Shown here piece after piece: positions 57,939 through 59,720 of a stretch of DNA of 64,000 nucleotides (position 1 is its first letter; the number at the start of each line of letters is the position of its first letter). The notes under the pieces were generated by a model, which saw nothing but the letters and a program-made list of their open reading frames with translations, searched no databases and was not told where the DNA came from. The DNA is from an uncultured Alphaproteobacteria bacterium (GTDB lineage Bacteria; Pseudomonadota; Alphaproteobacteria; HIMB59): NCBI GenBank assembly GCA_902619375.1, contig CACNEB010000007.1, positions 2,118 through 66,117 of the forward strand. Reading direction: 5' to 3'. A program made the translations under genes and the position numbers.

Positions 57939-58130
57939 ATGAAAACTATCTTTAAAATTGGTTCCAAAAGTCATACACTGAAATATCAAAGAAAAATGCC
58001 AGAGGGTGAAGTAAAAAAAATGAAATCTTTTGTTACATCTAAAGGCATAAAGTTGGAAAAAACAGCTAAGTTTAAGATAATTGATATCAGTGATCAGAAA
58101 GACTCTAGAACATTCAAAATTAATCTATAA
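57939..58130 (+). CDS. Small basic hypothetical protein
   Basis: ORF track. Confidence 0.6.
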   Translation: MKTIFKIGSKSHTLKYQRKMPEGEVKKMKSFVTSKGIKLEKTAKFKIIDISDQKDSRTFKINL

Positions 58131-58238
58131 CAGATCATTTTATTCATGATAGAGTTGTTCTGAAGATAGAAATTGTTTAGTCTTATCAGTGCAATTAATA
58201 TATTGACCATAATTAATTATTTTTCTAATTTGAGCTAA

Positions 58239-58613
58239 ATGGAGTTATCAATAATTTTTATTATTATAATTTTAATATTTTTCTCACCTTTAATTTTAGG
58301 ATTAATTTTTATGGGTGCCCAAAAGAAAATTAACCTTAGACATACAAATTCTAGTTTAAATAAACCAGGGTTTGTTGGTTATTGTTGGACTTATTTCTTC
58401 TTCAGTTTTTTTGTTCCTATTTTTCGTGGAGAAATTTTAATTGGAGTGCTCCATTTGATCTTTTCAGTAGTAACATTTGGTCTTTTTCAGTTAGTTATTC
58501 CTTTTCTTTATAACAAACAATTTACTAGTCGCATGTTGACAAGTGGTTGGGAATTAAGTGACACTGAAGAGAATATGCAAGCTGCAAGACTCAAGTTAGG
58601 CATAGGAAATTAA
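58239..58613 (+). CDS. DUF2628/HrgC-like membrane protein
   Basis: VGY.WT.FFF.FFVP.FRG, FLYNK.....L..GW. Confidence 0.65.
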   Translation: MELSIIFIIIILIFFSPLILGLIFMGAQKKINLRHTNSSLNKPGFVGYCWTYFFFSFFVPIFRGEILIGVLHLIFSVVTFGLFQLVIPFLYNKQFTSRMLTSGWELSDTEENMQAARLKLGIGN

Positions 58614-58656
58614 AAGGGGGCGTTCTGTTTCCTAACACATCGTCCCTAAGTCGCAC
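58611..58656 (-). repeat. Diverged direct-repeat copy of the tmRNA coding-piece 3' end (att-like)
   Basis: GGGGCGTTCTGTT exact at 58617-58629 and 59421-59433; similarity continues (CGTCCCTAAGTCGCAC vs CGCCCCAAAGCCGCGC). Confidence 0.85.
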
Positions 58657-58675
58657 TATATAATGATTTTATAAT

Positions 58676-58698
58676 AGTGTCTGCTAAAAGTGTCTGCT
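58676..58698. repeat. Tandem AGTGTCTGCT x2 (left arm-type site candidate)
   Basis: Copies at 58676-58685 and 58689-58698. Confidence 0.85.
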
Positions 58699-58782
58699 CT
58701 GATTTTTAGTTTTTTACGAATTTGCGACTTCTGTTTTTAATAAAGTATACAAATAGTTCTAAATAAATGTTATTATTAATAT

Positions 58783-59298
58783 GTGATTAAAATTATTTTT
58801 TCATTCTTACTTGTATTTTCATTTAACTCTTTTGCTTTAGATATTAGTTCCCCAGCATTTAATGATGGTGATAATATTCCAAAAAAATATGGATGTAAGT
58901 ATAATGGAGGTAATAATATATCTATCCCATTAGAGTTTTCAGATATTCCAGATGATGCAAAATCTCTTGCACTAATTATTGATGACCCTGATGCAATGAG
59001 TGTTGCTGGTAAAATATGGGTGCATTGGATTTTAGTAGATATACCAACAAATACAAAAGAACTTAAAGAGGTCAAAGATGGAAAATTAGGTATTGGAAAA
59101 ACCGGAAGAAATAGTAATGGTAGTAAAAATTATGGTGGACCTTGCCCACCCAACGGAGTTCATGTTTATAATATAAAAGTTTATGCCTTAAACATTGAAA
59201 TAAACAAAAGTTTAGGCGAAATGACACAAAAAAAATTCGAAAAAAAATATAAGAATGAAATTATTAGTTCATCTATGATTTCAGGAAAATATAAATAA
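58783..59298 (+). CDS. YbhB/YbcL (PEBP/RKIP-like) exported protein
   Basis: DDPDA, WVHW, YGGPCPP..H.Y...YAL; signal peptide. Confidence 0.92.
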   Translation: MIKIIFSFLLVFSFNSFALDISSPAFNDGDNIPKKYGCKYNGGNNISIPLEFSDIPDDAKSLALIIDDPDAMSVAGKIWVHWILVDIPTNTKELKEVKDGKLGIGKTGRNSNGSKNYGGPCPPNGVHVYNIKVYALNIEINKSLGEMTQKKFEKKYKNEIISSSMISGKYK

Positions 59299-59352
59299 TC
59301 TTTTCTTACTAAATTCCTTCTCTTTGATTCATCGCCTAGAATGTAACTTCAA

Positions 59353-59373
59353 AGTGTCTGCTAAGTGTCTGCT
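59353..59373. repeat. Tandem AGTGTCTGCT x2 (right arm-type site candidate)
   Basis: Copies at 59353-59362 and 59364-59373. Confidence 0.85.
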
Positions 59374-59420
59374 CTTTAAAAATAAAAAAGTAAGAAGAAA
59401 TAAAGGTTATTAAAATAAAA

Positions 59421-59681
59421 GGGGCGTTCTGTTGCCCGGCCGCCCCAAAGCCGCGCTTACCTAATTAGATTAAGCAGCGAGTGCTAATTCATTATCGTTA
59501 GCAATTATTTTAAGTTTCTATGTCGAAGAAACGCTTACAACGAGCAAAAACTATATCCTTCAGAGCACGTCAAACCTATATCACCCCCATAAAAATTTTT
59601 ATGGTGGAGGTGTCGGGTACCGCCCCCGAGTCCGATACACCTATTACATATAGCGTTTATTGCTATAGTTGATAAACAACG
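59421..59681 (-). ncRNA. ssrA: Permuted two-piece tmRNA
   Basis: Acceptor piece ends CACCTCCACCA (59602); coding piece starts GGGGGTG (59588) giving the G3.U pair; tag ANDNELALAA* at 59502-59470; ends GGCAACAGAACGCCCC; 5' end approximate. Confidence 0.95.
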
Positions 59682-59720
59682 AGGATAATATAGTCTAATA
59701 AATGAATCCTTTAAACACCT

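Follow-up and report, generated by a model that had tools for sequence, protein, structure and literature searches.

One-gene cassettes with att-like ends at the coding-piece hairpin of a permuted ssrA gene in streamlined marine alphaproteobacteria

The ybhB cassette behind the two-piece tmRNA gene

The DNA stretch analysed here (the window) comprises 64,000 bp from the 1.11-Mb genome (30% GC) of a streamlined marine alphaproteobacterium, which belongs to an order with two families. G000 is the working label for this genome; other G numbers denote relatives, and L numbers denote loci. The following features were identified in and around a short cassette at the 3' end of the tmRNA gene (positions in the window).

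59418–59719, minus strand: permuted (two-piece) tmRNA gene ssrA with the tag ANDNELALAA (Rfam RF01849 alpha_tmRNA, 195 bits; ARAGORN)
59421–59432, minus strand: ssrA-proximal core ACAGAACGCCCC (probable attL), 12 bp; forms the loop and 3' stem of the hairpin that ends the coding piece; a T run follows
59364–59373, plus strand: arm-type repeat 1, +60 from the proximal core; GCAGACAC on the minus reading
59353–59362, plus strand: arm-type repeat 2, +71 from the proximal core
58783–59298, plus strand: cargo gene for a 171-aa YbhB/YbcL (PEBP-family) protein, pointing towards ssrA
58689–58698, plus strand: arm-type repeat 3, −69 from the distal core
58676–58685, plus strand: arm-type repeat 4, −56 from the distal core
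58617–58628, minus strand: distal core ACAGAACGCCCC (probable attR), 804 bp from the proximal core
58239–58613, plus strand: membrane-like ORF of 124 aa with a stop codon directly adjacent to the distal core; cargo of a second, probably older unit
58152–58163, minus strand: third core, degenerate (8 of 12 positions match), which bounds the older unit of ~465 bp on its far side

The cassette is bounded by the repeat ends TAAAAGGGGGCGTTCTGTT (58611–58629) and TAAAAGGGGCGTTCTGTT (59416–59433), spaced 804 bp apart, and contains four exact copies of the decamer AGTGTCTGCT, all on the plus strand, which start at 58676 and 58689 (13 bp apart) and at 59353 and 59364 (11 bp apart). What the initial annotation described, namely a core repeat at both ends and two tandem decamer pairs in the same orientation with only a YbhB/YbcL gene between them, is all present. 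The cargo gene is the sole substantial ORF inside the cassette and matches the Pfam PBP/YbhB-YbcL family (E 9e-33) and TIGR00481 (above the cut-off); the N-terminus of its product is hydrophobic and, judged by eye, looks like a signal peptide. No recombinase was found among the ORFs flanking the cassette. The right-hand repeat is the 3' hairpin of the permuted ssrA gene on the minus strand, and by Rfam placement and predicted fold the duplicated target is the hairpin end of the tmRNA coding piece, as proposed earlier. This hairpin folds as expected, not better than shuffled sequences (z −0.63); folding at the distal junction was likewise no better than that of shuffles (z 0.12), and promoter and terminator scans gave chance-level results only.

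Elsewhere in G000, only four further exact decamers were found, all of them single (~0.003 copies are expected per 823 bp), and the clustering at the cassette is therefore not due to chance. Tandem decamer pairs with at most one mismatch per unit are limited to both cassette ends and one weak pair elsewhere in the genome, and the core GGGGCGTTCTGTT, at up to one mismatch, occurs at these two places only. Heterobivalent integrases such as those of lambda and HP1 use a short core with direct arm-type repeats on both sides, and share a three-domain fold with invariant R, K, R and Y residues. Arm-type repeats at fixed distances on either side of a short core are present here, and the cassette ends are very probably integrase att sites with arms. 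With regard to the older unit, the place in G168 that is homologous to its degenerate core contains a near-intact core. Many relatives have neither the ybhB cassette nor the older unit (58152–58613), and their ssrA joins a 63-aa gene directly.

Polymorphic arrays and arm words in relatives and metagenomes

Sixty relatives were searched with the region. In G010, ssrA is joined directly to the next gene at the core (an empty site), whereas G013 and G022 contain other cargo behind the same repeats, and G033 carries the same ybhB cargo. The initial annotation had named decamers serving as operators at unrelated promoters, together with an invariant site, as the observations that would speak against it and had proposed a search for alternative cargo; the site proved to be variable, with arrays in further relatives, and alternative cargo with the same arms was found in G013, G022 and many metagenome units.

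The exact core is present in 148 of the 187 genomes of the order, 81 of which contain two to eight copies (21 of 57 in the genus of G000 and 60 of 91 in the other family), with a few of the extra copies lying on other contigs. A reversed-pattern control gave four hits in the 187 genomes. One hundred ssrA-side regions were examined, which were chosen partly for containing several cores and thus provide no measure of frequency. In these regions, 115 core-bounded units from 61 genomes were delimited, having a median size of 985 bp (102 of them ≤2 kb). A single ORF was found in 73 units, and the ORFs are directed towards ssrA in 119 cases and away from it in 47. Conservation ahead of the downstream cores is 99% at the first A of ACAGAAC and 66% one base earlier in a profile whose core columns are fixed by the search pattern itself, and from this abrupt drop the crossover would lie at ACAGAAC or immediately ahead of it. 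The duplicated segment begins at ACAGAAC and not, as assumed earlier, at GGC.

Junctions were also read from assembled marine metagenome contigs. One contig contains an empty junction (58613 to 59419), another joins 58130 to 59414 and skips both the ybhB cassette and the older unit, and a third carries a copy of the ybhB cassette with one extra arm. Scanning for the core together with the arm family GCA[GTC]ACA[CG] yielded at least 128 loci, 124 of which were analysed. Many of them follow an ssrA with the tag ANESYA(I/L)AA, as in family f116, which we take as Pelagibacteraceae (SAR11-like), one homolog being named Candidatus Pelagibacter. In a class-wide draw of 401 genomes, the core with this arm was found in G000 only; because this draw contains only about three SAR11-like genomes, the result indicates rarity elsewhere and not absence.

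The repeat words differ between units (GCA[GTC]ACA[CG], CTACGAAG, ACACGAAG, CAACGAAG and others) and also among units within the single genomes G119 and G163. In the 111 units of at least 300 bp, tandem repeats were detected at the left end in 71 and in the right-end window in 57, the background rate being 129 of 3030 windows. Left and right words agree in 30 of the 41 units with tandems at both ends (shuffled mean, 14.3; none of 10000 shuffles reached 30) and, after the removal of units sharing interior or cargo, in 14 of 19 (shuffled mean, 4.2; 0 of 10000), figures that are somewhat overstated because kin are not independent. Among the ybhB cassettes, the arms are all GCAGACAC in G000, all GCATACAC in G033, GCATACAG in G179 and hybrid in G163, and the same gene has no repeat words at the ssrA-side end in G029.

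Several other features of these arrays were noted. Cargo-free stubs of <200 bp account for 21 of 224 units (20 of them at 120–152 bp; L192, L195, L199, L202, L204 and others; G053, G070 and G096), and in the inspected ones a single, shared array of arms was seen. Further YbhB/PBP-like genes turn up as cargo with the arm family of the ybhB cassette at L185:6128–6523 (PBP, E 2e-7) and, by eye, at L203, and one such recurring gene stands behind a SAR11-like ssrA. At L231:535–3412, a primase/Toprim-DUF5906 gene cluster, possibly a satellite-like element at the same site, lies upstream of a cassette array.

Integrases adjoining the same core

Three complete autonomous elements were found at this core, each with its own arm word at both ends. 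The L199 element, located at ssrA, is 5282 bp long and has CAATGAAG arms at +60/+71/+82 and −113/−69/−57, and its 420-aa integrase ORF ends over the distal arm. The G881 element (7.6 kb, TATGTACC arms) is followed by four more units, and that on contig C1 of G682 is 13.9 kb long (CTAAGAAC arms). All three also encode a serine resolvase. These helpers, together with a G077 element recognized by eye, are small integrated elements that combine a tyrosine integrase with a serine recombinase; searches of PHROGs gave no primase, terminase or capsid match and one weak helicase match. Helper elements stand in tandem with cassettes in G881, L199 and G102, which would allow mobilization in cis. In the G682 helper (L382:7378–13305), three genes resemble a type I restriction-modification set, the methyltransferase by a database match and the others by size and order.

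The integrases of these elements belong to a family of 400–420 aa, here designated type A. The 420-aa protein of L199 had no match in Pfam, PHROGs or NCBIfam, not one type A integrase was recovered with a broad PF00589-like profile, and a PDB sequence search with the type A profile returned nothing below E 0.16. The AlphaFold model of the L199 integrase (pLDDT 84) has XerH, lambda Int, XerA and Cre as its top Foldseek hits (E 4e-7 to 5e-6), its ESM Atlas neighbours are integrase clusters at 0.99, and R245, K279, R351 and Y383 are invariant in 30 type A sequences. By its modelled fold, the type A protein is predicted to be a lambda-Int-like tyrosine recombinase, in which both catalytic His positions appear, from the alignment, to be replaced. 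The N-terminal domain, modelled as a beta-sheet and a helix, gave no Foldseek match at E≤0.001; the arm-binding domain of the HPI integrase (3jtz; Z 4.8, rmsd 3.9, 65 aligned) ranked 17th, not above background. Homologs numbered 49 at E≤1e-5 in a 90% database, and 49 representatives were found at E≤1e-30 in a 50% library. The profile matched 12 of 321 f116 genomes (a tally that takes in G802, used nowhere else); two full-length f116 genes close the complete ssrA elements of G881 and G682, and six others have no core nearby. In a tree that includes ten rows without a site label, the ssrA-core integrases are separated from six other-site relatives (100/99), and the L241 and G881 integrases, which share the same arm word, are sisters (99/99). 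The six other-site integrases are located at L376–L379, L381 and L383, with no ssrA core in the 17.5–19.9 kb examined. In G810, CAATGAAG-type repeats surround a different core.

A PF00589 search identified one further family at the same core (type B), which is intact in G065, divided into two ORFs in G102 and present as remnants in G115 and G124. The gene is located just inside the ssrA-proximal end (L125:2679–3686, L124:8495–9510, L333 and L180), and the arm spacing (+69/+80 and −140/−38) differs from that of the ybhB cassette. Type B is unrelated to type A, and its homologs look like mosaics with swapped N-terminal segments. The G102 element carries genes for ArsR and an ArsP-type permease. 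The earlier idea of an integrase specificity for the permuted-ssrA core holds insofar as integrases adjoin the same core in relatives, but at least two unrelated families are involved and not one. G000 itself contains three PF00589 genes, all on contigs other than that of the cassette. One of them (L003:839–1941, contig C2) is a lone integrase gene (316 aa) that neighbours a tRNA-Lys(CTT)-like gene and is immediately preceded by a tandem repeat pair of its own.

Within the order, the type A profile matched 3 of 187 genomes, none of them in the genus of G000, and neither G000 (79% complete) nor 70 further genomes of that genus yielded a member of the family. In one genome of the order, G077, an element starts at ssrA with three GCATAGAG arms, a resolvase-like gene and an integrase N-terminus on contig C16, and contig C26 contains an integrase C-terminus, a distal core and three GCATAGAG arms; the two probably represent one element whose integrase gene is interrupted by an assembly gap. 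Its arms, at +60/+72/+83 and −114/−69/−56, match the geometry of the G000 cassette, and its ends are the most similar to those of G000 (53/71 and 80/114 identical columns vs 33–41 and 57–64 for other elements). The arm word differs from GCAGACAC at three of eight bases and from the GCATACAG variant at one. None of the elements found combines GCAGACAC arms with an intact integrase, and integrase traces are absent from all 32 units with GCA[GTC]ACA[CG] pairs at both ends. Traces were found in 11 of 224 units (3 intact), counts that include f116 regions picked for having an integrase, and 114 of the 116 units in genomes of this order have none. Because no integrase with exactly these arms was found, the link between the cassette and an integrase rests on the close G077 element, and a G077-like protein is the likely cognate enzyme of the ybhB cassette.

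Mobility of the cassettes and comparison with known systems

The explanation that we favour, with moderate confidence, is that the ybhB cassette is an integrase-less, one-gene unit inserted site-specifically at the hairpin core of the permuted ssrA gene and mobilized by a helper integrase that acts in trans through the arm-type decamers. Of the steps involved, the duplication of the core, the empty or differently filled site in relatives and the stacking of units in tandem are observed directly. The rare autonomous elements at the same core, which show the matching geometry (+60/+71 and −69/−56) and encode a divergent protein of 400–420 aa with a predicted lambda-Int-like fold next to a serine resolvase, would supply the enzyme. 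Strand exchange would occur in or beside ACAGAAC, where conservation begins, and the incoming DNA would supply ACAGAACGCCCC and the T run, so that the tmRNA end is restored. Since the arms are matched within a unit and differ between elements that carry different integrases, the arm may be regarded as an address read by the cognate integrase. A passing helper with compatible arms would then excise and re-integrate cassettes that have no integrase, and vesicles or phage particles may transport them. More tentatively, SAR11- and HIMB59-like bacteria may trade single genes in an integron-like manner, with no resident integrase and using end modules of ~130 bp that carry the address code and make a cassette for the permuted-tmRNA tail out of nearly any single gene; roving helpers with Pfam-invisible integrases would excise, reorder and spread those cassettes whose address they recognize.

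The ybhB cassette is whole in G000, G033, G163 (third in the array) and G179 and in one metagenome contig, and its boundaries at the core are precise in three different downstream-neighbour contexts. The ybhB gene is ~97% identical across the four genomes, vs 92.5–93.3% for rne and 93.6–97.7% for the thyX side. The carriers never formed one clade in 200 bootstrap trees, and G009, the nearest to G000 by rne (99.1%), has no cassette. Such patchiness could also arise by homologous recombination. The proposed search for 804-bp circles yielded one metagenome contig in which 59420 is followed by 58617 (depth 4.9; the shorter side comprises 39 letters), but the same junction would result from a tandem of two sibling cassettes, such as that in G163. 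None of the cassettes is shared whole between the two families of the order or with the SAR11-like family. Integrase remnants lie within units L187, L243, G661, G656, G115 and L236, and together with the 21 stubs of <200 bp they indicate that decay in place happens. The search of genomes and viromes proposed earlier recovered integrase elements at the core in relatives, but no related element in viral contigs or phage genomes: on viral contigs, the 36 loci with the arm-plus-core pattern were all chance matches lacking the architecture, the CTACGAAG pattern gave none, the core with an adjoining T run matched 14 loci, all unrelated, and the integrase queries found no real relative, and none was found among the INPHARED phages.

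Alternatively, the cassette may be an immobile relic similar to a cis-mobilizable element (CIME), with real att sites, that lost its integrase by internal deletion or replacement and spreads by homologous recombination via ssrA and the DNA around it or by riding an adjacent element. We consider this rather unlikely, although the integrase fragments inside several units are in line with it, as is the size of the stubs, which is that expected from deletion between direct arm pairs; moreover, no cassette is whole across families, and one f2 cassette occurs in 20 genomes, mostly in the first position, as an old insertion would. A relic does not readily account for arms that remain exact and, for a given cargo, vary jointly at the two ends, for the precise ybhB boundaries in three neighbour contexts or for the fact that the 114 trace-free units of the order are mostly of one-gene size. 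In a nested insertion, the mobile target would be the arm pair itself: a stub of ~130 bp would lie at ssrA, and cargo would enter between its duplicated arm pairs by a second mechanism. Stubs consisting of 'core to arms plus arms to core' are common, and the same end modules flank unrelated cargo. Such nesting is nevertheless improbable, because in autonomous elements these pairs occur at either end and enclose the integrase gene, the period (11 on one side, 13 on the other) and the copy number are not the same for the left and right pairs, unlike in a target duplication, and conserved spacer sequence extends inside the arms.

Two further explanations were weighed. A host chromosomal recombinase, either XerC/D-like or the integrase linked to tRNA-Lys on C2, might move the cassettes; G000 has three PF00589 genes, and helpers are rare (3 of 187 genomes) while arrays are common. 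This is very improbable, since one enzyme would not explain the varied arm words within G119 and G163, the C2 integrase is associated with a tRNA-Lys site of its own, where the repeats are different, and the cassette geometry matches that of the helper elements. Finally, the decamers might be operators of a transcription factor controlling ybhB, as one pair is located 85–107 bp upstream of its start, but the second pair lies downstream of ybhB, the same gene is accompanied by other words in G033 and G179 and by none at the ssrA-side end in G029, and the repeat spacing is fixed to the cores and not to the gene. With single copies alone outside the cassette and no other exact pair in G000, the decamer is not a genome-wide operator either, and this interpretation is largely refuted.

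Trans-mobilized cassettes of the kind that we favour resemble several known systems in part. CIMEs and their tandem accretion at one tDNA site, as outlined in PMC5704250, involve units that keep attL and attR and have no integrase or transfer genes. The ybhB cassette likewise retains both ends without integration or transfer genes, and with respect to an origin by decay, its ends resemble the G077 element, but remnants are found in other units and not inside it. In contrast to CIMEs, integrase-less units are the large majority here, are mostly 0.5–2 kb with one gene and have exact, end-matched arms; no conjugative element was seen, and mobilization is proposed to occur in trans, not in cis. 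The ssrA gene of Dehalococcoides is a standard, non-permuted gene. According to PMC3146451, Dehalococcoides islands lie in tandem behind ssrA, 15 of them without an integration module, with a short repeat (the 20-bp 3' end of ssrA) and the serine recombinase DsiB as the enzyme. The target in the present case is instead the coding-piece hairpin of a permuted gene, the recombinases are predicted to be tyrosine recombinases and arm repeats are present. In islands as defined by Islander (PMC4383910, as summarized there), a tyrosine integrase displaces a target fragment to the far end and the gene is restored, subsites lie in the tRNA-like part, at the anticodon, T loop or acceptor junction, and a PF00589 gene is required. 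The ybhB cassette has the far-end repeat in the same orientation but no internal integrase, which is found in the L199, G881, G682 and G102 elements; the core coincides with the last part of the Rfam alpha_tmRNA model, which follows the tag frame and does not belong to the tRNA-like domain. Type A integrases score no PF00589 match, and most units here have no integrase. Compared with lambda-type enzymes, the helper integrase shares the fold and the R-K-R-Y set in its model, the His positions appear to be replaced and arm binding is predicted from the repeat pattern.

Like integrons, these loci are arrays of mostly single, mostly co-oriented genes with recombination sites. Integron cassettes have no recombinase of their own, their attC sites form hairpins and the integrase IntI is resident. 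Here, units are bounded by a tDNA core and direct arm repeats; the ends are direct repeats, no boundary inverted repeat was found among the 25 longest of 66 pairs, and no resident IntI accompanies the ybhB cassette. Among small integrative elements of marine bacteria, VEIMEs are described in PMC9618062 as having Pelagibacter as a main host, some with a tyrosine integrase plus a serine recombinase and ~20% without a recognized integrase, and tycheposons are described as stacking at tRNA and tmRNA genes and leaving partial repeats (10.1101/2020.12.28.424599); the excerpted text of these two sources contains no permuted-ssrA coding-end site, arm code or one-gene cassettes. VEIME data sets may contain the present helpers. 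In the SAR11 material of PMC11796062, one island is bounded by tmRNA and four have partial tRNA repeats, with no att or arm analysis in that text, and SAR11 pangenomes are portrayed as having single-gene variable loci with almost no mobility genes, the mechanism being left open (PMC11796062; 10.64898/2026.10.07.757358). Pelagiphage attB sites, as far as the available text covers them, lie in tRNA-Cys, -Leu and -Arg, and the corresponding parts of PMC11476347, PMC11915505 and PMC11876622 mention no permuted-ssrA coding-end site. No report of integration into the end of the coding piece of a permuted ssrA emerged from the literature search. Mao et al. (2009), writing on tmRNA gene variants, are said to have noted fewer islands in permuted alphaproteobacterial ssrA genes.

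Tandem att-bounded, CIME-like islands are already known; the target subsite and the integrase family are unreported. The strongest new points are the covariation of the arms, the Pfam-invisible integrase family with matching geometry and the tie to the G077 element. The locus provides a defined route for one SAR11-type single-gene hotspot, with a 12-bp core, arm words and candidate enzymes missed by standard annotation, and could explain single-gene swapping in streamlined ocean bacteria at one locus per genome, not across the whole pangenome. In addition, two-piece tmRNA gains a target subsite that lies beyond its tRNA-like domain and that island finders requiring PF00589 would skip, and a 12-bp core with swappable arm specificities could serve genome engineering in these hosts. 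Off-site cores were observed at two loci. At L389:4309–5497 (contig C1 of G572), two ssrA 3' cores with ssrA-like left flanks lie far from ssrA, just behind a gene that we take to be pnp, and a displaced ssrA tail may have given rise to a second array site there. Off-site cores of a similar kind are present at L175 (contig C1 of G105).
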